Shown here: positions 8,743-63,972 of the stretch, in pieces
Numbering within the stretch: the stretch's first letter is position 1
Layout: each line of letters begins with the position of its first letter
DNA from: a virus
Lineage: Duplodnaviria > Heunggongvirae > Uroviricota > Caudoviricetes
Length of the DNA: 64,000 nucleotides
Strand: one strand, 5' to 3'
Virus record (IMG/VR): IMGVR_UViG_3300028888_000113
Translations under genes and position numbers: made by a program
The notes under the pieces: model-generated
The model's input: the letters and a program-made list of their open reading frames with translations, nothing else
Told to the model about the DNA's origin: nothing
Database searches by the model: none

Positions 8743-9344
8743 TCCTCCATGATTTTCTCTTCGTCGTAAACTTCTGTCTCATGATGATGTTCGTGATGAC
8801 CATGATGATGATCACGGCCAAGATTTTCAACAGCATCGCCAATGTCCTCACTCTTTATTCTGATAAGCCTTCCGAAGAAACGGGCGAAAGCCTTCCATCC
8901 GTCAACCATACTGATCTCAACACCCATCTTGACATAGGCAATGTGGCCGATGATACTTGCAATCTCACAAGCACAACCGAGACCTAATCCAATGGCAGCA
9001 GTCCACACATGAGAGCAAATATCCATAGGTTCAGTAATGGCAAGACCGATCAAGGCACCTACAACAAGATATGTCAGATAGTCAACAATCTTGTTGGCTG
9101 TTCTTCTGCCAGCCCTCGACTTATGCCATCTCCACTTGTCAATGCCAATCTCGTTGTTGTCCTTCTTGGCTTTCTCGTAGCGCATACTACTTTCAGAATA
9201 TCCCCACCACAGATCAGCCAGTATCAATGCAAATGAGCAGATGATCATATAACGAAGGTCATACACCACTGCCAGCAACTCCGCACTGATACTGGCCCAT
9301 ATAATCCCCTTTGGTCCTACTGATGAATCCATAAACCAAATCAT
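8739..9344 (-). CDS. Multi-pass membrane protein with His-rich C-terminus (holin candidate)
   Basis: Several TM segments. C-terminal HHHGHHEHHHE tail. Overlapping starts and stops with neighbours. Confidence 0.35.
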   Translation of the reverse strand: MIWFMDSSVGPKGIIWASISAELLAVVYDLRYMIICSFALILADLWWGYSESSMRYEKAKKDNNEIGIDKWRWHKSRAGRRTANKIVDYLTYLVVGALIGLAITEPMDICSHVWTAAIGLGLGCACEIASIIGHIAYVKMGVEISMVDGWKAFARFFGRLIRIKSEDIGDAVENLGRDHHHGHHEHHHETEVYDEEKIMED

Positions 9345-9847
9345 TTAAAGATTAAACTTCCCATCACCGATAGCCAACAAATGGCCTCGGCAACGAACAC
9401 ACCTTTCCCCTTGACTGCTTTCCCAAGATCTCCTTGAGGCTGGACATAGACGCTGCCCATGAAAAACACAAACAGCATCCACGATGCGAGCCACTGCACA
9501 TCAATGATGCAGACGCACATCTGTGAGAATACCCCTGCAGTTACTCCAAGCACATTATGGGCTTTGTTCCTTTCTCCCTGGACTAATGGCATAGCACCGG
9601 TGAACATGAGACTCGTAGCAAAGCAATGTGCTAATATTCCCCAGTCTTCACCGATAACATCAAACAGGGTAGGGCAAAACAGCAATGTCACAGACCATAT
9701 CCACAGAGTCCATAAATACTTTCCTCCTTTTGGTAGGTTATAGACCATTGCTGATACTGAGTCAGGCAGTCTTTTATGCACACAGATGGTAGCCCCCACA
9801 TAGAGGGCCACCAAAAGGATGCTTGATATGAGTAACGTGAAAGTCAT
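9341..9847 (-). CDS. Multi-pass membrane protein (holin/antiholin candidate)
   Basis: 168 aa, 4-5 hydrophobic segments. Confidence 0.35.
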   Translation of the reverse strand: MTFTLLISSILLVALYVGATICVHKRLPDSVSAMVYNLPKGGKYLWTLWIWSVTLLFCPTLFDVIGEDWGILAHCFATSLMFTGAMPLVQGERNKAHNVLGVTAGVFSQMCVCIIDVQWLASWMLFVFFMGSVYVQPQGDLGKAVKGKGVFVAEAICWLSVMGSLIFK

Positions 9848-9852
9848 AGGGC

Positions 9853-10401
9853 CTACTCGCTAACGGTTTCCGACTCTTCCTTGTTGAAGAATGCCTCGTA
9901 TGGCTCGAAGTTTATGCTGTCTTTCTTTATCCAGCCTGCAGCAAGTGTCTGCTCGATATAGTCATACACGGCAAAATAGAACTCATTCAGCTCGTCAAGC
10001 GTGTTGAATGTGCGGTAGTACGCTTTCTTGCTTTCGTCCTCGCTGATCTTGAAGGTCTTGGGCTGATAGTTCTTTGAACCCTTCTTGTCTGCCAGACGCT
10101 GGGCCTCAGAATAGTTGGTCTGATTCTCGCGCGACAACCAAACATGACGTTCAACACCTTCGTTGTCTTCCCACACAAAACCTGTCAAAATCTTCTCGTC
10201 AGTCTGAGAGTCGATGTCTGCAATGATGGCTCCCTTCACCATGTCGAGAGTCAACATAGGATTTTTCTTCTTCGGAAGATAAACCTCTACCCAAGTAGCT
10301 TTCTCTTCGTCAATGACTTCAAGACCATAGCTGATTACAATACGTGTACCCTCTTCACGAACGGGTACGAACTCACTGATAAGACCTTGTACTTTGTTCA
10401 T
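9853..10401 (-). CDS. Hypothetical acidic protein
   Basis: 182-aa ORF directly downstream of the DGR RT. Confidence 0.4.
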   Translation of the reverse strand: MNKVQGLISEFVPVREEGTRIVISYGLEVIDEEKATWVEVYLPKKKNPMLTLDMVKGAIIADIDSQTDEKILTGFVWEDNEGVERHVWLSRENQTNYSEAQRLADKKGSKNYQPKTFKISEDESKKAYYRTFNTLDELNEFYFAVYDYIEQTLAAGWIKKDSINFEPYEAFFNKEESETVSE

Positions 10402-10421
10402 AATCCCTAAATTTTAATTTG

Positions 10422-11606
10422 TTAATACCTGAAAACTTTTTTCTCTGTTATTTTGGTCAGACCATCGTCTAAGACTCCGAGTCTGAGTATTTCCTTTACC
10501 ATGAATAGCCTCCGTCTTATTCTGTAAGAAGCAGTATGCTGGAAGATTCCAAGATAGGAGTTGATACTTCTCAGCACTTTCTTCGGACTGGAGAAATCGA
10601 GCATTTTCAGCTTCAATTCTATTCTCTGGAGCGAGTGCCTTGAGATATAGATCCTCCAGGGCTTGATGAAGGAACCAAGAAACTCCACTCCCTGATGCAC
10701 TTCCGAAATCGTTAGTTTGCCTCTGTGTAGTTCCAATCCCAACTCTTCCTTGAGAAATCTCTGAATGTCTGGCACCAACGACAGAAGCCAATCTTTGTCC
10801 GATGACACTACGGCTGCATCGTCCACATATCTGCCGTAATAGCGACATTTCAGCACTCTCTTCATGAACTGGTCGAACACGTTCAGATAGACATTGCTGA
10901 ATAGTTGAGAGGTCAGGTTTCCTATCGGAAGACCCAATCCTTCCAACAGATTCAGCATTGACTTGGCTGGGTCGAGACCATCCCAATCCGAAGGATCGCC
11001 ACAGATGATGCAGTTCAATTTCGGATCGAGCATTACTATCACCTCTGTAAGATAGCAGACAAAGTCCATGTCGAGCCTGTCCTGCCATAGCGCGGGATGA
11101 TATTTGTTGATCCTGTGAGTGGCCATGTTCCTCAGAGACTTCAAGGCTATTTCCAACAGCCTGCGACGAACTATGTGCATGAAGTAGCCCCTGATGTCTA
11201 AGTGCATCACATAGCACTTGCGTTGCCAATTCCTCGATTCCTTCCTGCAGAAGTCCTCTATACGATGTATGCCGTAGTGGGTACCACGTCCCTTTATGCA
11301 ACTGTAAGAGTCTATGATAAACGTCCTCTCGTAGAGACCGTGCGTATAGTTGAAGTACAGGTGATGCACTATCCTGTCTCTGAACATTGCAGCGAAGATC
11401 TCTCTCTTCTTCGGATAATCGACAATGAAGCATTTCGACGGGAGAGGCTTGTAACGACGATAATACAAGTCGTCGCACAATTCTTCCATATTCCTTTTCA
11501 GGTCTTTTGCCCATTTCTTCACGTATGAGCGATTGGACTTGTGCTTCCGTGCGTCGTAGTAGGCAACATACAGGTCGAACAGAAGTCTCTCCCGTGTAAG
11601 AGTCAT
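10422..11606 (-). CDS. DGR reverse transcriptase
   Basis: RT motifs including YVDDAAV (motif C) and LGF..KPW. TR lies 38 bp upstream. 394 aa, typical DGR RT size. Confidence 0.9.
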   Translation of the reverse strand: MTLTRERLLFDLYVAYYDARKHKSNRSYVKKWAKDLKRNMEELCDDLYYRRYKPLPSKCFIVDYPKKREIFAAMFRDRIVHHLYFNYTHGLYERTFIIDSYSCIKGRGTHYGIHRIEDFCRKESRNWQRKCYVMHLDIRGYFMHIVRRRLLEIALKSLRNMATHRINKYHPALWQDRLDMDFVCYLTEVIVMLDPKLNCIICGDPSDWDGLDPAKSMLNLLEGLGLPIGNLTSQLFSNVYLNVFDQFMKRVLKCRYYGRYVDDAAVVSSDKDWLLSLVPDIQRFLKEELGLELHRGKLTISEVHQGVEFLGSFIKPWRIYISRHSLQRIELKLKMLDFSSPKKVLRSINSYLGIFQHTASYRIRRRLFMVKEILRLGVLDDGLTKITEKKVFRY

Positions 11607-11643
11607 GCTTCTCTATATTTAAAAGGATGATTGCAGTTGAGTG

Positions 11644-11821
11644 CTGAACCGGGCGCACCGCGAAGCCGTTGTACCGGTTGTTGTTGTTCTGAGGATTCAC
11701 CCCACCACTGTTGAAGTTCAAGTTCCGAGCGTTGGCTGCGGAGTTGAACGAAGCAGACCAGTAGTTGCCATTGCCGCCACGGTTGTTCCACGACGCGCCA
11801 TTGCCGTTGCCAGAGCAAGGG
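11644..11821 (-). repeat. DGR template repeat (TR)
   Basis: 178-bp stretch matching 12675-12852 with 19 mismatches. All 19 are at TR adenines on the coding (-) strand. TR translates N-rich (AAC codons) in the VR frame. Confidence 0.9.
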
Positions 11822-11978
11822 AAGAAGGCTTTTCGGTCACCGCCTTTTACGAAGACCACAATGGGTTGCACTAAGCAAGACAATGTGGCATCTTTGCTTT
11901 TTCCCGAATCACGAAGACTCAGGACGGATGACCTGTGAACTTCTATCTGAACCATCCTTATAGGTTTTACATTTGTTA

Positions 11979-12539
11979 TCAGAACATAGCAGAAACTTGT
12001 TGTCTCAACTGACGTAAGAACTCCCATGCCTCCATAGGAGATTTCGACTCAATGGGATATGACACTATCCTTGCGAGCACATCAGACATACGTGTGATCC
12101 TTGGTGCCGCCTCAGACACCTCACGATCCTCTCGCTTAGTCTTCTTCTGCTCATTCATCTGAAGAGATTCTTTCCAGTCATCGACACCTTTTCTGAAAGT
12201 CTCAGCGTCAACGTTTAAATATTCTTCTGGAAGAGGTACGATAATCTCGATGTGGTTGTCATCGACAGGATTGAACTTCACTGTTCCATCATTGGGAATA
12301 TACTTTCCCAAAGATGCGACAGGAAATCCTACCCATGCTTCAATGTAGTTGTCCTTTAACCTCTTTGCAGAGATATTCAATGGCTTGTTCTTTGCCTCGC
12401 CCATTGGGAACTTCGTCATCAGCCATGCGCTCCAGTCGTGTGCACGGTAGAAATTATTCTCTTTCAGAAGATGGATTACTCCATACTGATCAGAAGCCTG
12501 TCTGTTGCTTTCTATTTCAACGATTTCTGCTATTGTCAT
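11979..12539 (-). CDS. DGR accessory protein candidate (Avd position)
   Basis: 186-aa ORF located between target gene and TR, the canonical accessory-gene slot. No recognisable motif, so the call is positional only. Confidence 0.35.
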   Translation of the reverse strand: MTIAEIVEIESNRQASDQYGVIHLLKENNFYRAHDWSAWLMTKFPMGEAKNKPLNISAKRLKDNYIEAWVGFPVASLGKYIPNDGTVKFNPVDDNHIEIIVPLPEEYLNVDAETFRKGVDDWKESLQMNEQKKTKREDREVSEAAPRITRMSDVLARIVSYPIESKSPMEAWEFLRQLRQQVSAMF

Positions 12540-12580
12540 TTTTTCTCTTTTTAGTTTATTTATTCCCTCCCATTGCGGAG

Positions 12581-12626
12581 TGTGCCTTGTGGCCGCTTGT
12601 GGAGCGGCCTTGGTGGCACACCCCGA
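12581..12626 (-). other. GC-rich stem-loop immediately downstream of VR (DGR homing-associated hairpin candidate)
   Basis: GTGTGCC..GGCCGCT TGTGG AGCGGCC..GGCACAC nested inverted repeat ~50-90 bp 3' of the VR/IMH end. Confidence 0.5.
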
Positions 12627-12671
12627 ATGATTGGGATTGGTTTGTTCTCTCTTGGTTGGCCAAGATAGAAG

Positions 12672-13787
12672 TTACTGAACCGGGCGCACCGCGAAGCCGT
12701 AGCACCGGCTGCTGTAGCTCCGAGGAGTCACCCCACCACTGCTGAAGCTCAAGTTCCGAGCGTGGGCTGCGGAGTAGAACGAAGCAGACCAGTAGTAGCC
12801 AACGCCGCCACGGGGGTACCACGACGCGCCATTGCCGTAGCCAGAGCAAGGGCAGAAGAGAAGATTACCGTTAATCTTTGACTTCAAATACAAGCCTAAG
12901 ACGCCGTTTACGGTCACACGCTTATCTGTTGTAGCAGAGTCTATGACGGTGCCGTTAGCGTAAATGAAATCGCAATTTGCAAACAGTTCTGCGTACTCTT
13001 CTGTTGTCGGCATACGCCAAGGTGCACCGAGATTTACACGGGCAGCGTCCTGAGAAGCAGCGAGACTTGCCGTGATACCACAGCCAGGAGTCTGACCGTA
13101 GATAGAATCGGACTTATAGCCGTTACCAGCGTCATTCTTCGAGTTGTCCCATGTTCCGAAGTCGTGGTTGAAACTTGAGTTATCCTTTGGATTGAACATC
13201 TGAGTATTACCCCATGACACAAAAGAACACTCATATTGGAACTCAGAGGCAGCGAAGCCATTGGCCTGAGTAACGTCGATGTTCTTCTTTGCCCAGAGCA
13301 AACCAGATGGTAAGCCCATGTCAACGTACAGATCTTCCTGTACAGATGTTTTCTCCTGTCCGAGAATGCCGATGATGTTCCAGTTCGTACCGTCGTACTG
13401 TAACTGTACTACGGTCCGAGCCTTTACGACTCCTGCCTGCAGGGTATTACCCATGATCTTGATGGGCTTTGCACCTGTACTGTTCACGTTCAGTGTTGCT
13501 CCTGCTACGGCTATTGCAGACGTGAACAGAACGCTCACGATACCGTTTTTCAGAAGAATGAAGTCGCTGATGGCTACGGTCTTTGCCTGTGTCGTGGCTT
13601 CAGTGCTGCACGTTCCGATACCGTTACCAGCCTTTGCCATGTCGCGTACCAACTGCTGGGCAGGGTATTTCCCTGCGGGAGTACCGTCAGGATTAAATAT
13701 CATGACTGTCTGGGTAGCACCGGGAGCTGCGTTTGGCAATCCAGCCTGTACCGCTTTCAATACGTTTGCTGTTGAAATAGTGTCCAT
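12672..13787 (-). CDS. DGR target protein, C-terminal DUF1566/C-type-lectin-like variable domain (putative receptor-binding protein)
   Basis: C-terminus CSGYGNGASWYPRGGVGYYWSASFYSAAHARNLSFSSGGVTPRSYSSRCYGFAVRPVQ is encoded by the VR. ...YGFAVRPV is the characteristic ending of Bacteroides DGR CLec/DUF1566 targets. Confidence 0.8.
   Translation of the reverse strand: MDTISTANVLKAVQAGLPNAAPGATQTVMIFNPDGTPAGKYPAQQLVRDMAKAGNGIGTCSTEATTQAKTVAISDFILLKNGIVSVLFTSAIAVAGATLNVNSTGAKPIKIMGNTLQAGVVKARTVVQLQYDGTNWNIIGILGQEKTSVQEDLYVDMGLPSGLLWAKKNIDVTQANGFAASEFQYECSFVSWGNTQMFNPKDNSSFNHDFGTWDNSKNDAGNGYKSDSIYGQTPGCGITASLAASQDAARVNLGAPWRMPTTEEYAELFANCDFIYANGTVIDSATTDKRVTVNGVLGLYLKSKINGNLLFCPCSGYGNGASWYPRGGVGYYWSASFYSAAHARNLSFSSGGVTPRSYSSRCYGFAVRPVQ
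12675..12852 (-). repeat. DGR variable repeat (VR) at the 3' end of the target gene
   Basis: Homologous to the TR. Differs only at positions where the TR has A. The 3'-terminal 26 nt (GC-rich IMH-like) are identical to the TR. Confidence 0.9.
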
Positions 13788-38792: not shown

Positions 38793-38841
38793 GATGTTTT
38801 AATTGATAAGTTAATATTGATGATTTCAATGTTATCCTGAG

Positions 38842-38914
38842 TGGCGGGAAGCGGACTCGAACCGCTGACCTCAAGGCTATGATCCTCGCGAGCTACCAAC
38901 TGCTCCATCCCGCG
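38842..38914 (-). tRNA. tRNA-Met (CAT)
   Basis: I folded it by hand. Acceptor CGCGGGA/TCCCGCC (1-72 C.C mismatch), D-arm TGGAGCAGTTGGTAGCTCG, anticodon stem CGAGG/CCTTG with loop ATCATAG, T-loop TTCGAGT. Confidence 0.75.
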
Positions 38915-46225: not shown

Positions 46226-46513
46226 TTAATATTTCTTGAAAAGGAAACTCCTAAATTCCGCATCTTTCGTATCTTTGAGGTCTGAAATGAGAATGATTTC
46301 AGTTATAAACAGAAAAACATTGATGGCAGGAACAAACGTTAATATTAAAAATACGATTATTTGCCACATCTGGAATTTCAGCTTATCACCCTCTTCCCAG
46401 CTTTCCTTTCTACTAACTCTGCTTGTAGTATGATACGAACGGAAGAAAATCACCCACCACAGATATATTGTGATGAAGATGAACAGATAGTAGAATAGAA
46501 TAGCCCAGATCAT
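46226..46513 (-). CDS. Small 2-TM membrane protein (partner of the SPFH protein)
   Basis: 95 aa, two long hydrophobic helices. Stop overlaps the start of the SPFH gene (4-nt overlap). Confidence 0.4.
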   Translation of the reverse strand: MIWAILFYYLFIFITIYLWWVIFFRSYHTTSRVSRKESWEEGDKLKFQMWQIIVFLILTFVPAINVFLFITEIILISDLKDTKDAEFRSFLFKKY

Positions 46514-47340
46514 TTTCCTAACACTTTTGATACGTCAAGAATCTGGCCACTGGCACCCATGATGACAGGAACCTTGCCATCCCATTTCTCAATGAAGTCC
46601 TCTTGGATAATCATAGGACTCAGAGAAGCCGCAATAGTCTTGTTATAATAAGCCTCCGCATCGGCTTTGATCTTCATAGCCTTGGCATTACCTTCTGCCT
46701 TGGCAACGGCAATCTTAGCATTCGCCTCAGCCTCCTTTACCTCGTTCTCTGCCTTCAAGGCACTCTGAATGGCAGCGTTCTTAGCGTCAATCATAGACGT
46801 GAGAGATTTCGGTGGAGTGATCTTACTCGTAAATTCTTCGACAATGAAACCCTCTTGCATCAGAGACTTCTCAAGACGGGCACGCACATCACGCTCGAAG
46901 TTCGCACGATTAGACATGAGACTGTCAGAGGTGTACTGATTGGCACATGTCCTATATGCCTCGTAGATACAGGTCCTGATATAACCATCCTCCAGAGAAC
47001 GAACATCAACACGATACTTCACGAAAATGTCACATGCCTTATCCGGATTGATGTGGTAGGCTATAGTAGGATCCATTTCAAACAGAGACGCATCCTTCGC
47101 ATTCACGTTAATGGTCTCATACTGCTTACGCTGAGTAAAAGTAGGATAGGTGAAGACAGATGTGGTTATCGGGTTATACAGAACGATACCATTGCAAGTA
47201 CCCTCTACACCACCGTAATTCTCAGCATCGGAACTCCACTTGTGGAACTCAATGCCAACCTCACCGCTGTCAACAACGGTGCAAGACTGAAAACACACTG
47301 CGGCAATAAGCATTGCCATCGAATAGAATAATTTCTTCAT
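46510..47340 (-). CDS. SPFH/band-7 (prohibitin/HflC-like) lipoprotein
   Basis: Signal peptide MKKLFYSMAMLIAAVCFQSC (lipobox), then SPFH-like core and C-terminal AEA/AKA coiled coil (KEAEANAKIAVAKAEGNAKAMKIKADAEA). Confidence 0.55.
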   Translation of the reverse strand: MKKLFYSMAMLIAAVCFQSCTVVDSGEVGIEFHKWSSDAENYGGVEGTCNGIVLYNPITTSVFTYPTFTQRKQYETINVNAKDASLFEMDPTIAYHINPDKACDIFVKYRVDVRSLEDGYIRTCIYEAYRTCANQYTSDSLMSNRANFERDVRARLEKSLMQEGFIVEEFTSKITPPKSLTSMIDAKNAAIQSALKAENEVKEAEANAKIAVAKAEGNAKAMKIKADAEAYYNKTIAASLSPMIIQEDFIEKWDGKVPVIMGASGQILDVSKVLGK

Positions 47341-47374
47341 GTTGTTATTGAATTTAATGAATAATATGGTGAAA

Positions 47375-48043
47375 TCACCAGTTGAATACCCTCGCCCAGA
47401 AACCACGGCCTTTTAGTGCCGCCAGTTCCTCTTTATACTGATCGATGAACTTACTCAGTTCAATGTTGGCCTTCTTCTGACGCTCCAGTTCTTCCTCCAT
47501 CAGAGTGTTCGACTGCTGCAAAGTTCTGTTTTCAGAAGTTAGCTTGTTTATCTGCTCAAGACCAGCCTTTACTTTAATTTCAAGCCCATCTGCGACAGCT
47601 TTTAACCTGCCAGCCTCCTTTGAGAAATGAATATGGAGTTTACGCTCATTCTCAAGACCAGACTCCAACTCCCTCACCTGAGTAAGAGTAGGACGCACAC
47701 GTTTCTTCACTACCTTATAAGGCTGAGGACCGTCGGCCTTCCAGTCAACATAAGCATTCCTAAGACCCTCAACAGGCACATTCTCGACAATGCTGATCTC
47801 AAGAGTCTTCTTGTCAAAGCAAAGGCCATTCTTCTTCAATGCAGCAAAGAACAGCTTCTTCTCCTTCTCTGTGGCATGACGCGCATAACGCATATCAGTA
47901 CCAGCCGGAGCACCAGAAGTACAGTAGCAGGCAAGGCACTTATAGGCATCACCCTCAAACTTGTCATCAGTGAATATCCTGATGTTACCCAAACCACTCA
48001 CGATAACATCACCACTCTTGAAAATACGATCCTTTCCTATCAT
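47375..48043 (-). CDS. Coiled-coil hypothetical protein
   Basis: 222 aa. C-terminal heptad-rich segment. Confidence 0.35.
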   Translation of the reverse strand: MIGKDRIFKSGDVIVSGLGNIRIFTDDKFEGDAYKCLACYCTSGAPAGTDMRYARHATEKEKKLFFAALKKNGLCFDKKTLEISIVENVPVEGLRNAYVDWKADGPQPYKVVKKRVRPTLTQVRELESGLENERKLHIHFSKEAGRLKAVADGLEIKVKAGLEQINKLTSENRTLQQSNTLMEEELERQKKANIELSKFIDQYKEELAALKGRGFWARVFNW

Positions 48044-55768: not shown

Positions 55769-56098
55769 ATGGAAAATTCAATTATGACAGATGCAAAGCG
55801 CATCAACGAGATTACTGGCCGTCCGATGGCAGAGTGTGAGAAACAGGCTCAGCAGATTGCAGAGTGTATCAAGGAAATGAACAGTCGAATCGTTGAGTTC
55901 TACTACATGAAGAAAGATGGATCCAAGCGTCAGGCGTTCGGCACATTGCAGCCGGAGGTGATTGTTCCTATTATCAGTCAGGCACCAGAGCGCAAGCCTA
56001 ATCCCGACCTTGTGACGTACTACGACACAGAGGCACAGGCATTCCGTTCTTTCAAGAAGGTCAATTTCATCGAGTACGTCAAGCAATCTCAGGCATGA
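55769..56098 (+). CDS. Hypothetical protein (cassette-array gene)
   Basis: 109-aa ORF. Confidence 0.35.
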   Translation: MENSIMTDAKRINEITGRPMAECEKQAQQIAECIKEMNSRIVEFYYMKKDGSKRQAFGTLQPEVIVPIISQAPERKPNPDLVTYYDTEAQAFRSFKKVNFIEYVKQSQA

Positions 56099-57082: not shown

Positions 57083-57589
57083 ATGAACAAAGACAAATCT
57101 ATCTACGCTTGCTATGAAGAAATCAAGCAACGTGAAATCAGTGAGCTAATGGAGAAAGTACGTCTCATGAAAGGACAATACGTTTTTCAAACTCTCGAAG
57201 CTCCATGCGTCTTGGTAAACTTCGACGATGGGCCGTGTGAAGATGTGCGTGTTGGCTCTGTTGAGATTCAAAATGTCAGTGAGACAGAGATCCTATGTAT
57301 CTTTGACACATTTGGAAATCAGATAAAGCTATCTGATATTGCCTACGGCCACATTGAGTTCATAACAGAGTCTATTCCATGCAGGACATTCTCACAAGAA
57401 AGTTTCTGTATATCAAGACTGAGCCGTGAAGACCTTGATAGCATAGGTTTTGATACGTCAGATATTGATGACAAGACAATGCAGAGACTTGCAGAGAAGC
57501 TTGGCGATGACTATTGTGAACAGTTATTCTGGACTTCGCTTGAGATTATTGCAGAGGAAGGGTTCAATATTCCCCGCAAAGAAGGATGA
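57083..57589 (+). CDS. Hypothetical acidic protein (cassette-array gene)
   Basis: 168-aa ORF. Confidence 0.35.
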   Translation: MNKDKSIYACYEEIKQREISELMEKVRLMKGQYVFQTLEAPCVLVNFDDGPCEDVRVGSVEIQNVSETEILCIFDTFGNQIKLSDIAYGHIEFITESIPCRTFSQESFCISRLSREDLDSIGFDTSDIDDKTMQRLAEKLGDDYCEQLFWTSLEIIAEEGFNIPRKEG

Positions 57590-57697: not shown

Positions 57698-58177
57698 TTG
57701 AATATGAAAATTGACATTTGCAAAGTAACCAGTAATCCAGATTTCGCAAGGATGGCTGCAGAATATCTTGCATACTCATTGCAGGACGTGAAGACGTATC
57801 AAAACCTCACCCCAAAGGAGCGAGAGATTATCAGCGAGGAGATGTTCAATAGCATTCAGCATCTTGACACAAGACAAATGTTCACCGAATTGAAACAGAA
57901 ACACCCAGACGCAATCTTGCTTTTCAGAATAGGTGATTTCTATGAGGCTCGCGACAAAGATGCAGAAGTCTGCTCAAGCATCCTTGGCATCACGCTTACG
58001 GTCAGAACTAACGACAAATTGGCAGGCTTCCCACATCATGCACTTGATACATATCTGCCAAAACTCATTCGTGCCGGCCATCGTGTAGCCATCTGCGATC
58101 AGTTGGAGGATCCGAAAATGACAAAGAAACTCGTAAAACGAGGCATCACAGAACTTGTCAGCCCCAGACTTACTTAG
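57698..58177 (+). CDS. Stand-alone MutS domain I (mismatch-recognition domain) protein
   Basis: [24 protein letters not shown]...ITLT.R...[32 protein letters not shown] aligns to the E. coli MutS N-terminus (HPEILLFYRMGDFYELF...PMAGIPYHAVENYLAKLV..GESVAICEQ..DP), including the mismatch-contacting Phe-x-Glu. 159 aa with no ATPase domain. Confidence 0.7.
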
Positions 58178-58233
58178 CCTCAGCCATTTTCCCATTATCG
58201 GGAGAATGGTGCTCTAACCAAAATTTTAAGAGT

Positions 58234-58929
58234 ATGAAAGAAAGAACGTTTTTACCCGTGAACTGTTGGGCAGCGGAAGATATTCCATCCAACAAAATCA
58301 TTGATGCAAATCCTGAGAATCTGAGCAATGCAGAGTTGCTTTCGATTATCCTTGGTACAGGTTCCGACAAAGAAACATCTGTTGACTTGGCGAGAAGGAT
58401 TCTCATGTCTTGCGACAATAATCTTGCAGAACTCTCTAAGAAAACACCTCGCCAACTCACATATATGCGTGGTGTCGGCAAGCAGAAAGCTGCAAAGATT
58501 ATTGCAGCAATGGAACTCGGAAAGCGCAGGCAGAATCAAATACTGTCTGATAAGCCTGACTTGGGTACGGCTTGCCGTATCTACAATCACATGCACCCAA
58601 TCATGCAGGATCTCGACGTTGAAGAGTTCTGGTGCCTTTTTATAAATCGTAACTACAAACTTATCAAGAAGTTCCGAGTGTCGAGAGGTGGACTTACAGA
58701 AACAGCCGTAGATATTCGTATCATCATGCGTGAGGCCGTTGTCTCAAATGCGACAATCCTTGCAGTATGTCACAATCACCCGTCTGGAAATCTTACTCCA
58801 TCTAAGTGTGATGACGAACTTACAACGTCAATCAAGCGTGCTTGTGAAGTAATGAGAATCTATTTCCTGGATCACGTTATCATTACAGATGGCGCATACT
58901 ACAGTTATCATGAGCAAGGGCGCATTTAG
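58234..58929 (+). CDS. radC: RadC-like JAB/MPN domain protein
   Basis: N-terminal HhH-like ELLSIILGTGSD and the catalytic JAMM motif HNHPSGNLTPSKCDDELT. Confidence 0.75.
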   Translation: MKERTFLPVNCWAAEDIPSNKIIDANPENLSNAELLSIILGTGSDKETSVDLARRILMSCDNNLAELSKKTPRQLTYMRGVGKQKAAKIIAAMELGKRRQNQILSDKPDLGTACRIYNHMHPIMQDLDVEEFWCLFINRNYKLIKKFRVSRGGLTETAVDIRIIMREAVVSNATILAVCHNHPSGNLTPSKCDDELTTSIKRACEVMRIYFLDHVIITDGAYYSYHEQGRI

Positions 58930-58990: not shown

Positions 58991-60283
58991 ATGAATAAAA
59001 AAGATTTATTGAGTTATTGCTGGAAGCATAGTCTGTTCGGCAATGTCGTAACAACCGACGGGAAGAGTGTTGACATTTTAGATCCAGGATTGCACAATCG
59101 CAACGAAGGGCCTACGTTTTTCAATGCGAAAGTCAGATTCAACAACACTCTTTGGGTGGGTAACGCTCAGATTCTCGTAAATTCCTCAGATTGGTACTTG
59201 AATAGTTTTGATCGTAATCATAAGTACGACAATGTTATTCTTATCATCTGTGACATCGTGGACTCAGAGGTTACAAACTCGAAGGGTGAGACTATTCCGA
59301 TAGCACAAGGCATTATTCCTGAGAATGTCACTCGCAACTGCAATACTCTCATGGGACTTGGCGGCGATTTCCTCTGTCATAGTTATGTCATGGAGTATTC
59401 TACGACACTTATGCGTCATGCGTGGTTGTCTGCTATGCAAACAGAATGGCTTGAGCAGAAGACTGAGCATCTACGTCAGATCTACCGTCAGAACAAATCA
59501 ATGGAAGACACGTTCTTTATCTCTCTGTTCAGCAGCTTTGGCTTTGGTGCCAACGATGATGTAATGGAGAAACTTGCAAATGCGGTTCCTATGAGTGTTA
59601 TTGACAATTATCGCGACGATCTGTTTCAGATAGAGGCCATCATCTTAGGCCAGGCTGGCTTGATTACAGACATAGAGTGTGTTCCAGAGAAGTTTCATGA
59701 TAAAACCTTGATGGAAGGATATTTTCAGAGACTCCGTAACGAGTATCTGTATCTTGCCCATAAGTATTCGATGAAACCAATCTCTGCAAGATTCAAGCCG
59801 TTCAACCGACGCTTCTCCAGCCCTCATGTGTACCTGTCGATGCTTGCAAACCTCATTTACAGAAGATCTATCAGCAGCAGCATAGTCACTGGTCTTGCTT
59901 CTGCAAAGGAAGTCATGGATCAGCTCTTCACAAAGGCTACTCCATATTGGGAAATGCACAATCAGTTTGGTGCCATTACAAACAAGACAGAGAAGAAACT
60001 GAGTTTCGATAAGATGTCGTACATCATGGCTGCTTCCATCGTTCCGTTCCTCTTCTTCTATGGAAGAGAGAAGTCTAATGAGGAAATCTGTGACCGTGCT
60101 TTCGACATCATGGAGCAGATGAAGGTTTTCTCTACTGCAGAATCATCGTCTTTCGCCAAGCACGGATTGGAGCCGGCTACAGCAGGAGATACGATTGCGC
60201 TAACTCAGATGAAACGTGAGTATTGCCAGAAGCACGACTGCCTGCGTTGTCGCTTTGGCTTTGAGTTCATTAGAAAGCATTAG
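58991..60283 (+). CDS. Conserved hypothetical protein (430 aa)
   Basis: Long ORF ending in a Cys cluster (CQKHDCLRCRFGFEF). No motif I can assign. Confidence 0.4.
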   Translation: MNKKDLLSYCWKHSLFGNVVTTDGKSVDILDPGLHNRNEGPTFFNAKVRFNNTLWVGNAQILVNSSDWYLNSFDRNHKYDNVILIICDIVDSEVTNSKGETIPIAQGIIPENVTRNCNTLMGLGGDFLCHSYVMEYSTTLMRHAWLSAMQTEWLEQKTEHLRQIYRQNKSMEDTFFISLFSSFGFGANDDVMEKLANAVPMSVIDNYRDDLFQIEAIILGQAGLITDIECVPEKFHDKTLMEGYFQRLRNEYLYLAHKYSMKPISARFKPFNRRFSSPHVYLSMLANLIYRRSISSSIVTGLASAKEVMDQLFTKATPYWEMHNQFGAITNKTEKKLSFDKMSYIMAASIVPFLFFYGREKSNEEICDRAFDIMEQMKVFSTAESSSFAKHGLEPATAGDTIALTQMKREYCQKHDCLRCRFGFEFIRKH

Positions 60284-61544: not shown

Positions 61545-62483
61545 ATGAAAGAATTGAGAGGGCTCACTTATGAGCAAAACAAGAAGTTTCGCTACGCAAT
61601 AGAGTGCGGCTACTTCGACACATGGGAGCAGGACCCTCGAAAGTGGAAGCATACTTTCATTGGTGCTTTCCTTTGGAAATACCCTTCAAGGGTAAAAGTC
61701 CTGAATATACTCAAGGATATTATCGGCAATATGCCTGTATGGGAAGACATCAATGATGAAACATTGCGCGACCTTATTGATGAACTTTCTGCAAATGAAC
61801 TTGCACCCGGATCTATACGAACGATGTGTGCAGAACTGAAAGCCGTACTAAACGAGAATGCCAGGCGCATACCTTCTACAGACTTCGCAAAGATTCTGTC
61901 TATCAAAGGTACGGCTACTCAGTCCACTTATCTCACAGTCCACGAAATGGAATTGTTCTTGTCTTATGTTCCAAAAACAGATATTGAGCATTTCGTACAT
62001 CGTACCTTCTGTGTGTCTATGCTTACTGGCGCACGTCAGGTTGACGCTGCCCGTCTTACGATAAGTAACTGTGACATGGAAACAAACATGCTGTCCTATG
62101 TTCCTCAGAAAACTCCAGGGCTTATCGTCAGAGTTCCCGTTGATGAAAGACACGGCTTGCGCAATTTCCTTGCCGACGTGAATCTTGAGCCGTGTTGCCT
62201 TGATACGTTCAATGATGTGCTTAGAAGAATATGCAGCGAGATAGGAATTGAAACGGTATGTACCGTTGTCAAGGCAGGAAAGAATATCACAGAACCCAAA
62301 TGGAAACTTGTCAGCTCTCACACGGCCAGACGAACGTTTGCCACGAACCTCTATCTTGCTGGTGTATCTCTTGAAGACATAGCAATGATGATGGGACACG
62401 GAAAGAATATTGAAACGACTAAGCGGTATGTCTGTGCAGAGCGCACACTGAATCCAAATGTCATGTCTTACTTCCAGCCATAG
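61545..62483 (+). CDS. Tyrosine recombinase (Bacteroides-type integrase family)
   Basis: C-terminal catalytic signature SSHTARRTFATNLYLAGVSLEDIAMMMGHGKNIETTKRY (HxxR...GH...RY). Co-directional with the 50-61 kb array. Confidence 0.7.
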   Translation: MKELRGLTYEQNKKFRYAIECGYFDTWEQDPRKWKHTFIGAFLWKYPSRVKVLNILKDIIGNMPVWEDINDETLRDLIDELSANELAPGSIRTMCAELKAVLNENARRIPSTDFAKILSIKGTATQSTYLTVHEMELFLSYVPKTDIEHFVHRTFCVSMLTGARQVDAARLTISNCDMETNMLSYVPQKTPGLIVRVPVDERHGLRNFLADVNLEPCCLDTFNDVLRRICSEIGIETVCTVVKAGKNITEPKWKLVSSHTARRTFATNLYLAGVSLEDIAMMMGHGKNIETTKRYVCAERTLNPNVMSYFQP

Positions 62484-62485
62484 TC

Positions 62486-63712
62486 TTAGGGCAGCTCACT
62501 GCCCACCAAATAACCAATAACTCTTCTGACGGCATTATCAATCTTTCGCTGATCGGTGGCCATATATCGCGACGTAACATTCTTAGCCCATGAGTGGCCG
62601 AGGCACATGCCTATAGTTCGCTCAGATATATCAAGGTCATTGGCAGCGATAGAACCGAACGAGTATCTGGCTGAGTAAAGGGTAATCTCAGGACATATAG
62701 GCTCATACTCCATCTTACGGAGTTTTCCTACTTTGTCCTTTACCTTATGAGAAGGTCCAACCTTCTGCAGAGCATCATTGCAGGCTCTTGCGAACGAACG
62801 ATAGGAGTTTCTGCAGTCCATAAATCCGGTGAGCCATCCTTCATCCGATGGATAGCGATCAATGATTTCTTGCGCCTCTGGAAGTACAGGCAGCGTGATT
62901 GTCCTAATCTTTGTGGAACCTTGCTTGTTGGTCTTCTGCCTTACGAATGTCAGATGACCGTCTTTTATTGCGTCTGATTTCAGACTCAGCAGATCTACGG
63001 GGTTGATGCCAGCAAGGTAGAAACTCAGAAAGAAGAAGTCAACGTATGGCTTCTGCCATGACTCGCAAGGGTAGTCACGCAGTCTTCTGAGGTCTTCAAC
63101 GGATATATTGTTTGGAACGGTTTCTTCTTCCACGATATGATAATCCAAGAAGGGATAGTTCTGTGTAAGGCCACGCTTTCGTGCCCAATTGAAGACGGCA
63201 CGTATATTTCGCAGTTCCTTGCCGACACCGTTGATACTCATTCCTTCTTCTATATAGTGTGATCTGAACGATTCTATCCACTCTTTATCTATTGACAGGC
63301 CTGCCTTGCTATCAAAGTCCAGGACCTTACGGGCTGTCAGTTCATAGATGGATCGTGTTTGTTCCGTTTTTGTTCCGGCAAACTCGTAGATGTAATCGGA
63401 TAGGGTAGAGGTTTTCGGTACCATGCCGAAGACTTTCTCTTGGATTTCCTTCTTGAGTTGTTTGTTATCAGTCTTGGATAGTTCAGACTGCAGGCACAGA
63501 ACTTCAATGTCAGCAAGATACTTACCGAGAAGTGTAGTCTTAGCTTTCCCAGCTTTATCAGCTTTGGGAAAGAGCATACCAACCAGTTTGTCGGTAGTAG
63601 TGAGGCCCGTATTCACGAAGAAACGGCCTTGCTTGTTCTTTACTACGACGTACACAGGATATGTGCCGTCAGAGTTAGATCTCGTTGTGTCAACGTAAGG
63701 ATGGATTCTCAT
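62486..63712 (-). CDS. Tyrosine integrase with N-terminal Arm-DNA-binding domain, adjacent to tRNA-Gly
   Basis: 408 aa. N-terminal arm-binding-like domain, SAM-like core-binding domain, catalytic LYSARYSF...LGHS...TSRY. Lies 190 bp from the 3' end of tRNA-Gly. Confidence 0.8.
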   Translation of the reverse strand: MRIHPYVDTTRSNSDGTYPVYVVVKNKQGRFFVNTGLTTTDKLVGMLFPKADKAGKAKTTLLGKYLADIEVLCLQSELSKTDNKQLKKEIQEKVFGMVPKTSTLSDYIYEFAGTKTEQTRSIYELTARKVLDFDSKAGLSIDKEWIESFRSHYIEEGMSINGVGKELRNIRAVFNWARKRGLTQNYPFLDYHIVEEETVPNNISVEDLRRLRDYPCESWQKPYVDFFFLSFYLAGINPVDLLSLKSDAIKDGHLTFVRQKTNKQGSTKIRTITLPVLPEAQEIIDRYPSDEGWLTGFMDCRNSYRSFARACNDALQKVGPSHKVKDKVGKLRKMEYEPICPEITLYSARYSFGSIAANDLDISERTIGMCLGHSWAKNVTSRYMATDQRKIDNAVRRVIGYLVGSELP

Positions 63713-63901
63713 TTGAGTTGAATTTTGTTTGTTAATACTTGCTGACCATTATTTCGGTCAGCATTCTGATTGCTGTTTGATTTGCTGACTTTTTTCAGCC
63801 CTCAAAAACCCGCAAAAACGGCATTTTTCAACTCAGATTTGCTTATCTCTAAGCCTTTTCTTTCATAGGTTTTCGGCGTAACCGCCTGATTATCAATGTA
63901 G

Positions 63902-63972
63902 AGCGGAATACGGGAATCGAACCCGCCTCCCAGGCTTGGGAAGCCCGTGCACTACCGATGTGCTAATTCCGC
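63902..63972 (-). tRNA. tRNA-Gly (CCC), probable prophage attachment site
   Basis: I folded it by hand. Acceptor GCGGAAT/ATTCCGC, D-arm GCAC-ATCGGTA-GTGC, anticodon stem CGGGC/GCCTG with loop TTCCCAA, T-arm GCGGG-TTCGATT-CCCGT. Confidence 0.85.

Follow-up and report, generated by a model that had tools for sequence, protein, structure and literature searches.

A stand-alone MutS domain I beside a RadC-family gene in a tailed phage that carries a diversity-generating retroelement

The domain with which MutS recognises mismatches (domain I, Pfam family MutS_I) has already been described outside the full-length repair protein. In polyvalent proteins of Bacteroidetes and Firmicutes elements there is a MutS-I module, 'derived from the classical MutS' and usually accompanied by ArdC-N, and RadC is also listed (Iyer et al. 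2017, J Bacteriol 199:e00245-17, PMC5512222); the same authors placed MutS-I, ArdC-N and RadC in one early-invasion toolkit and proposed DNA binding on the incoming element (PMC5512222). The function of ArdC in conjugation has been studied experimentally (cited in PMC5512222). Among diversity-generating retroelements (DGRs), 16 of 372 have a small MutS-like protein called MSL, always together with avd, and three DGR reverse transcriptases (RTs) have a C-terminal MutS_I domain (Wu et al. 2018, NAR 46:11, PMC5758913). The pilus DGRs of Bacteroides encode Msl, and deletion of mutS raises retrohoming 5-10-fold (bioRxiv 10.1101/2024.11.15.621889); a 2026 preprint gives the MSL homologues as a reason to suspect the participation of mismatch repair (MMR) in retrohoming and to suppress MMR in engineered DGRs. 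Finally, the cultured Bacteroides phage B124-14 encodes a small solo MutS_I protein (ORF064c of HE608841.1, 'putative mismatch repair protein'). Here we analyse a stretch of 64,000 nucleotides (the window) from the tailed-phage record IMGVR_UViG_3300028888_000113 of IMG/VR, in which a gene at positions 57704-58177 encodes MutS domain I on its own, next to a RadC-family gene, in a phage of gut Bacteroidales that also carries a DGR. A preliminary description of this locus knew of no phage family consisting of MutS domain I alone and tied to DGRs; the polyvalent MutS-I modules, the MSL class and ORF064c of B124-14 all precede it.

The gene product is a complete MutS domain I without the other parts of MutS. 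In evolutionary terms it belongs with the MutS-I modules found in polyvalent proteins, and it would work as they do. We tentatively propose, with a probability of roughly 0.45, that it is a non-catalytic binder of DNA structures which belongs to an accessory arm of the anti-restriction type and excludes host factors, plausibly MutS. What is new is a rare two-part family, made of an orphan four-helix N-terminal domain followed by MutS_I, and its fixed position within a triad of genes for a 168-192-aa protein, MutS_I and RadC, the prevalence of ParB-MutS_I fusions being a side novelty. No new class of system is revealed, and a connection with the DGR is unsupported by the genomic context.

The MutS_I protein and its two-part family

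The gene and its parts are the following.

57704-58177, plus strand: stand-alone MutS domain I gene, 157 aa (Pfam, AlphaFold2/Foldseek, phmmer, tblastn)
57704-57868, plus strand: N-terminal extension of about 55 aa, acidic (isoelectric point, pI, 4.9), an orphan four-helix mini-domain (alignments, AlphaFold2)
57869-58165, plus strand: MutS_I core with G77-D-F79-Y-E81 (Pfam, Foldseek, phmmer)
58178-58225, plus strand: possible faint mutS relic, in frame past the stop codon

The open reading frame (ORF) called mechanically at 57698-58177 (159 aa) opens at a TTG at 57698; the probable true start is the ATG at 57704, giving a protein of 157 aa, the same as in P0001, a protein from metagenomes with 98% identity. 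The match to Pfam MutS_I (PF01624) spans residues 60-156 and positions 5-106 of the 113 of the profile, with E=1.2e-30 and 106.5 bits (cutoff 20.6). The NCBIfam MutS equivalogs are matched only over positions 6-107 of 793/840, and the score of 120 bits, below the full-length cutoff of 480, is as expected for domain I alone. In the AlphaFold2 model the core reaches a predicted local distance difference test (pLDDT) score of 90-96, and the best PDB matches found by Foldseek are domain I of the E. coli and Taq MutS proteins, with probability 1.0 and 41-44% identity. By phmmer against PDB, residues 52-154 align with residues 9-116 of E. coli MutS, and G77-D-F79-Y-E81 aligns with G-D-F36-Y-E38, F79 and E81 corresponding to the mismatch-contacting F36 and E38; in this alignment the protein terminates exactly at the boundary between domain I and the connector. 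The core is basic, with a pI of 9.3 compared with 8.9 for cellular domain I. The identification of the ORF as MutS domain I with its Phe-x-Glu pair, put forward in the preliminary description, is therefore borne out by the profile, the alignment and the predicted structure.

The remainder of MutS is missing. A tblastn search of the window with an 862-aa Bacteroides MutS matched residues 3-124 only and located no connector, core, clamp or ATPase anywhere, and the MutS_V ATPase had no match in the window by Pfam, NCBIfam or tblastn. Set beside domain I of cellular MutS (residues 2-115 in E. coli; PDB 1E3M and 1EWQ), the protein shares the fold, the GxFxE motif and a very high identity to Bacteroidales MutS, but it has no connector, core/lever, clamp, ATPase or helix-turn-helix (HTH), and it lacks ATPase dimerisation, the ATP switch and the recruitment of MutL. 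Without an ATPase or MutL-interacting parts repair is impossible for this protein, which is not a MutS mismatch-repair ATPase (MutS1, TIGR01070 / PRK05399), and it cannot alone signal repair, as had been anticipated from the ORF itself.

The core is preceded by a conserved N-terminal extension, and this architecture characterises the family. In the family alignments the conserved motifs of the extension are MKIDIxK, RMAAEhLAY and [10 protein letters not shown], or in another notation MKIDIxK and RMAAEh[13 protein letters not shown]. The AlphaFold2 model of the extension consists of four short helices (pLDDT 88.7), a fold for which no match was found in PDB. An exhaustive HMMER search of 1.84e9 representative proteins with the extension alone returned only 9 matches, a word-index search for homologues of the 57-aa extension by itself gave none, and extension-specific patterns located no relatives in IMG/VR or in 185,579 GTDB species-representative genomes. 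The two-part family is so far found in metagenomes only and is rare. The extension is also seen as stand-alone ORFs of 53-61 aa, and as a tandem pair in P0129 (among P0122, P0124, P0125, P0127 and P0129). A 'plasmid' match reaching into the extension (H36) was discarded, as it proved to be a piece of chromosome that carries a normal mutS of full length. A PLSDB entry (L099; NZ_OY725927.1, B. finegoldii 'plasmid 25') contains polysaccharide-utilisation and housekeeping genes together with a full-length mutS and looks like a chromosomal fragment.

The ratio of nonsynonymous to synonymous substitution rates (dN/dS, omega) between the window gene and its family members ranges from 0.09 to 0.40. 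For the least saturated pair omega is 0.26 in the core and 0.40 in the N-terminal extension, and for the remaining pairs, in which dS is largely saturated, it is about 0.1-0.2. Purifying selection thus acts on both halves, indicating a functional gene and not debris. The Phe-x-Glu region reads GDFYE in five of the nine family lineages, and GNCYE, GLCFA, GHFYN and GDMHE in the other four; the three variants scanned against Pfam (GLCFA, GHFYN and GDMHE) are still clear MutS_I matches. Considering all sources, GDFYE is kept in 201 of the 207 MutS_I segments examined.

With regard to the origin of the domain, the core shares 76-78% identity with the domain I of MutS in Bacteroidales cells, and in identity clustering the copies from mobile elements and from cells are intermixed. 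The core is thus recently derived from Bacteroidales mutS, by a capture that probably took place more than once. The last 24 residues of the window protein are identical to those of B. finegoldii MutS, a segment in which the family siblings differ, and the frame past the stop codon reads HYRENGAL where cellular MutS has NYKENNFLA, a weak resemblance to the beginning of the connector domain. The identical C terminus and the connector-like frame suggest that the 3' part of the gene (58100-58225) was once refreshed from a host mutS. A recent gene conversion with cellular mutS was rejected, given that the nucleotide identity of the 3' half is only 78-81% and the exchange is therefore not recent. 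High identity to the cellular domain, the C terminus shared with B. finegoldii, the faint relic and the 'mismatch repair protein' label of the B124-14 homologue could all be read as signs of a functionless fragment of a host mutS, left by illegitimate recombination, or of a genuine repair protein. Either is scarcely credible, because dN/dS is well under 1, the ORF is intact in at least nine lineages, down to 45% identity, with the N-terminal domain and the synteny constant, and the cut is placed precisely at the domain boundary; the lack of ATPase and MutL-interacting parts excludes repair.

The accessory arm and MutS_I on other mobile elements

The MutS_I gene lies in an arm composed of the following neighbours.

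55769-56098, plus strand: small WYL_2 (Sm-like SH3) protein, conserved arm member
57083-57589, plus strand: upstream partner, 168-aa acidic protein (pI 4.35), no family match
58234-58929, plus strand: downstream partner, RadC-family JAB protein (UPF0758_N + RadC)
58991-60283, plus strand: DUF2851 protein, 430 aa, mobile arm member
61545-63712 (61545-62483 plus, 62486-63712 minus): convergent tyrosine recombinases closing the arm
63901-63972, minus strand: tRNA-Gly(CCC), after the recombinase pair

The downstream gene matches PF04002 with E=2.1e-37 and PF20582 (UPF0758_N) with E=6.6e-19, and it scores 194.2 bits with NCBIfam NF000642, above the curated cutoff of 180, which places it in the RadC family (TIGR00608 / PRK00024). 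Five independent contexts of the two-part family were compared (the window, L001, L180/181, L182/183 and L184) and all five share one order, that is, WYL_2 followed at some distance by the 168-192-aa acidic protein, MutS_I and RadC, and then by the convergent tyrosine recombinases, a pair that is kept in all relatives. The intergenic gaps of the triad are short, and each of these contexts has a homologue of the 168-aa protein directly 5' of MutS_I, the one in L001 sharing about 80% identity in its C-terminal half. The 168-aa acidic protein is a candidate DNA or protein mimic. The DUF2851 gene changes its place: in the window it follows RadC, in L001 and L184 it precedes the 168-aa homologue, and L180 and L182 lack it; a DUF2851 scan of IMG/VR yielded no relative. 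In L001 and L182 the sequence runs past the recombinases into a LexA-like repressor module, with an antirepressor as well in L001.

Such a strict order in five of five contexts, the short gaps, and the fact that both RadC and MutS-I are known as polyvalent-protein domains would be consistent with a polyvalent protein split into separate genes, in which MutS_I is the targeting subunit for RadC (a predicted nucleic-acid-processing JAB enzyme), for the 168-aa protein or for both, recognising a DNA structure on which the partner then acts. We regard this as improbable, since the activity of RadC is itself predicted, a nearby RadC is missing for most solo MutS_I genes, and in L184 the RadC gene (10497-11170) seems disrupted, only a 122-aa UPF0758_N product being called, while the adjoining MutS_I is intact.

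MutS_I was found on 198 viral contigs of IMG/VR, and the architectures of the best 80 of these 198 were distributed as follows.

46 of 80: solo small ORFs
12 of 80: fused to ParB_N+HTH_ParB, in either order
10 of 80: host full-length MutS at contig edges
6 of 80: further long ORFs, lacking a second Pfam domain
4 of 80: with an LPD29-containing region
2 of 80: fused to ArdC-N and a zincin metallopeptidase (MPTase)

Fusion to ParB is the commonest fused form, accounting for 12 of the 24 long non-cellular ORFs among these best 80. MutS_I is N-terminal in L023, L037, L058, L069 and L073, and C-terminal in L027, L033, L034, L042, L081, L082 and L096. Examples of the other fusions are ArdC-N+MPTase+MutS_I in L078 and LPD29+MutS_I in L044. 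The families most often found in the flanks, counted as Pfam families in 122 flanking genes of 53 non-redundant MutS_I loci, are MPTase-PolyVal (7), ArdC-N (5) and phage integrase (4), followed by ArdA, N6_N4 methylase, LPD11, DUF3560 and DUF2958 with two each; none of the 122 genes matches RVT_1. Neighbours and fusions are hence of the anti-restriction type and constitute the same domain set as that of the polyvalent proteins (PMC5512222). ParB-MutS_I fusions, common in IMG/VR, are not highlighted in the text of that work, which stresses the co-occurrence with ArdC-N.

The window protein resembles the polyvalent MutS-I modules in being a domain I that comes from cellular MutS yet stands outside it, on mobile elements of Bacteroidetes and associated with ArdC-N, zincin MPTase and RadC, and in the binding of unusual DNA on the invading element that is proposed for it. 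It differs from them in being a solo protein of 157 aa with a 55-aa orphan N-terminal domain, not embedded in a giant multidomain polypeptide, and its gene is located beside integrases in the arm of a temperate siphovirus-like phage. The ORF064c product of B124-14 is likewise a solo MutS_I (Pfam E=5e-19) of a cultured Bacteroides phage, encoded among resolvase, nuclease and antirepressor genes; however, it has 81 aa, no N-terminal domain, the motif ADFCE and 41% identity to the window protein, and there is neither a RadC neighbour nor a DGR (no RT).

A different role would be that of a protein-binding decoy or dominant-negative factor, in which the surface of domain I and the N-terminal domain bind a host protein, such as a defence sensor, MutS or another protein of repair or replication, and poison or divert it. 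One segment of the structural core, [13 protein letters not shown], is near-invariant, while the DNA-intercalating Phe or Glu is lost in several members; the N-terminal domain is conserved as strongly as the core, has an orphan fold and also occurs alone; and the strong acidity of the upstream partner (pI 4.35) is typical of protein or DNA mimics. In cellular MutS the contacts with MutL are made by the connector and the ATPase/core domains. The literature, in turn, places the MutL contacts on the sliding-clamp state of MutS and does not assign them to the mismatch-binding domain, the core of the window protein is still basic, and DNA-binding modules (ParB HTH, ArdC-N) make up the great majority of the fusion partners of MutS_I, a hint of a DNA context. 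A protein-binding decoy is for these reasons improbable in our opinion.

The retroelement and a sibling phage

According to gene annotation the window derives from a tailed phage or prophage, with genes for terminase, SPP1-type portal, major head and tape measure proteins and for a D5-type primase, besides two integrase genes. Its DGR comprises a template repeat (TR) and a variable repeat (VR) in the following arrangement.

10422-13787, minus strand: DGR cassette, found by RT and TR/VR search (context only, with no demonstrated link to the MutS_I gene)
10422-11606, minus strand: DGR RT (RVT_1)
11644-11827: TR
11979-12539: DGR accessory ORF, 186 aa
12675-12858: VR, at the 3' end of the target gene
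12672-13787, minus strand: DGR target gene

The DGR is genuine, as the preliminary description had recognised: the RT matches RVT_1 with E=9e-11, TR and VR form a 184-nt repeat of 89% identity, and 19 of the 20 differences between them replace an adenine by another nucleotide (A-to-N) on the coding strand. A 537-aa ORF (10414-12027, minus strand) overlies the RT in another frame, spans the TR and matches the VR region of the target protein; it is probably not a real gene. Elsewhere in the window there are a tRNA-Met(CAT) gene (38841-38914, minus strand), with the capsid module on one side and the terminase gene on the other, and a gene for an SPFH/Band 7 protein (46510-47406, minus strand; Pfam E=5e-19), near the primase gene.

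The preliminary description suggested that the MutS_I protein could shield the A-to-N mismatches of the DGR from host MMR or bias their resolution. In a fuller form of this idea the protein would serve the DGR in the manner of an MSL acting in trans, binding the dense A-to-N mismatches of the heteroduplex between complementary DNA and VR and hiding them from host MutS so that retrohoming rises, and it would be retained because of the DGR. The presence of an active-looking DGR in the window, the recognition of MSL as a DGR accessory class and the three RTs with a C-terminal MutS_I (PMC5758913), the Msl of Bacteroides DGRs with the 5-10-fold rise in retrohoming upon deletion of mutS, and the F-x-E retained by the window copy are all favourable to this idea. 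The published MSL class and the mutS effect make it a sensible one, yet one that is already in the literature. The window protein is similar to the MSLs in its small size (157 aa, compared with 112-283 aa), in its kinship with the mismatch domain of MutS, in belonging to a DGR-carrying element and in the anti-MMR rationale. Most MSLs are linked to MutS by fold recognition, whereas the window protein is 76-78% identical to cellular domain I. Furthermore, MSL genes are found inside the DGR cassette together with avd and RT, whereas the window gene is located 46 kb away from the cassette, in an unrelated module, and the cassette itself has no MutS-like ORF.

Of all single comparisons, that with a sibling phage is the most informative in this respect. 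The contig IMGVR_UViG_3300028591_000020 (75.6 kb) encodes an RT 76% identical to that of the window (L018) and has the same arm (L100), consisting of WYL_2, the 168-aa homologue, a RadC with 73% identity and both integrases. The slot between the 168-aa homologue and RadC is occupied by a bona fide ArdC (8772-9940; ArdcN 1e-24, MPTase 2e-33), and no clear MutS_I is present. Before the ArdC gene there is a 69-aa ORF that matches the MutS_I-core profile weakly (hhalign 75%, E=2.6e-5) and may be a degenerate MutS_I. ArdC, formed by the single-stranded DNA-binding ArdC-N domain and a zincin metallopeptidase, is comparable to the MutS_I protein in occupying the same slot and in being a non-nuclease binder that protects incoming DNA, but its fold is unrelated and it has a peptidase domain.

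The distribution of both genes points in the same direction. RT searches around MutS_I genes covered flanks of up to 10 kb: phmmer found no RT at E<0.1 in 89 mobile-element MutS_I loci (1.41 Mb), and no RT lies within 10 kb in any context of the two-part family. Conversely, MutS_I is absent from the 13 closest RT loci, and the lineage of the RT, with 5775 clusters at E<=1e-30, is very abundant compared with a two-part family that is very rare. Phage B124-14, which we take to be lytic, has a solo MutS_I and no RT. An apparent homologue of the DGR target near a solo MutS_I (L085) was dismissed, as there is no TR/VR pair and the next gene is a host dnaN. Together with the loss of the motif in four of nine family lineages, the 46-kb separation and the ArdC in the sibling slot, this genomic context argues against a dedicated DGR role for the window gene and leaves the specific tie to the DGR, as first advanced, unsupported; we consider such a role unlikely.

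Proposed role and implications

Returning to the reading that we prefer, a solo MutS_I would have been exapted from Bacteroidales mutS and joined to an orphan helical N-terminal domain, and would now be one component of the arm that extends from WYL_2 through the 168-aa acidic protein, MutS_I, RadC and DUF2851 to the integrases. We propose that it may bind irregular DNA, such as mismatches, unpaired bases and junctions between single- and double-stranded DNA, on the phage genome or on phage-host recombination intermediates. Having no connector, ATPase or MutL-recruiting parts, the protein would merely occupy such sites without emitting a repair signal, and its occupancy would keep off host factors, most plausibly MutS, which acts both in mismatch repair and in anti-recombination, and perhaps nucleases. 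The protein would thus share a functional niche with the ArdC-N and MutS-I domains of the polyvalent proteins, and any benefit for the DGR would be a by-product in trans rather than a dedicated role. That the solo domain binds DNA, which host factor it excludes and when the gene is expressed are parts of this proposal that we infer.

Several observations weigh against this proposal. The binding of DNA by a solo MutS-I is a prediction. In the structures of cellular MutS much of the affinity for DNA comes from the clamp domain, so that domain I on its own may be a weak DNA binder, unless it is helped by the N-terminal domain or a partner. The preliminary description had itself named the loss of Phe-x-Glu in homologues as evidence to the contrary, and Phe or Glu is indeed lost in four of the nine family lineages, GDFYE being kept in the other five; the selected function cannot then strictly require canonical mismatch intercalation. 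The partnership with RadC, taken at first as a pairing common in anti-restriction and DNA-processing islands, is real at this locus and constant in the five contexts of its own family, in an anti-restriction-like island, but it is lineage-specific, because none of 80 viral RadC loci has a MutS_I within 10 kb. Scans for sigma-70-type promoters and for terminators, which do not cover Bacteroidetes promoters, gave results at chance level. Finally, an att (attachment site) repeat that would mark the prophage ends was sought in the window and none was found.

A more specific possibility is that the protein is a natural mismatch shield of the phage, that is, a minimal MutS decoy that would block MMR and anti-recombination in the host and boost both homeologous recombination and, in trans, DGR retrohoming. 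The effect of mutS deletion on Bacteroides retrohoming renders an anti-MMR role, as originally suggested for this gene, biologically plausible (bioRxiv 10.1101/2024.11.15.621889), and a search of the literature turned up no usable report of a characterised phage MMR inhibitor or of a dominant-negative effect of isolated domain I. We look upon the mismatch shield as doubtful.

Bacteroidales phages and conjugative elements have acquired MutS domain I repeatedly, either solo, fused to ParB or fused to ArdC. Engineered DGR and recombineering systems depend on a dominant-negative MutL, and a small natural blocker of MMR would be both informative and useful. The locus offers a clean and selectable candidate of 157 aa with an intact F-x-E, natural variants that have lost the motif as controls, and a defined three-gene module. 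If the protein were a mismatch shield, no natural anti-MMR protein would have been characterised before it, and it would be a ready-made alternative to dominant-negative MutL in Bacteroides, for recombineering as well as for DGR engineering.

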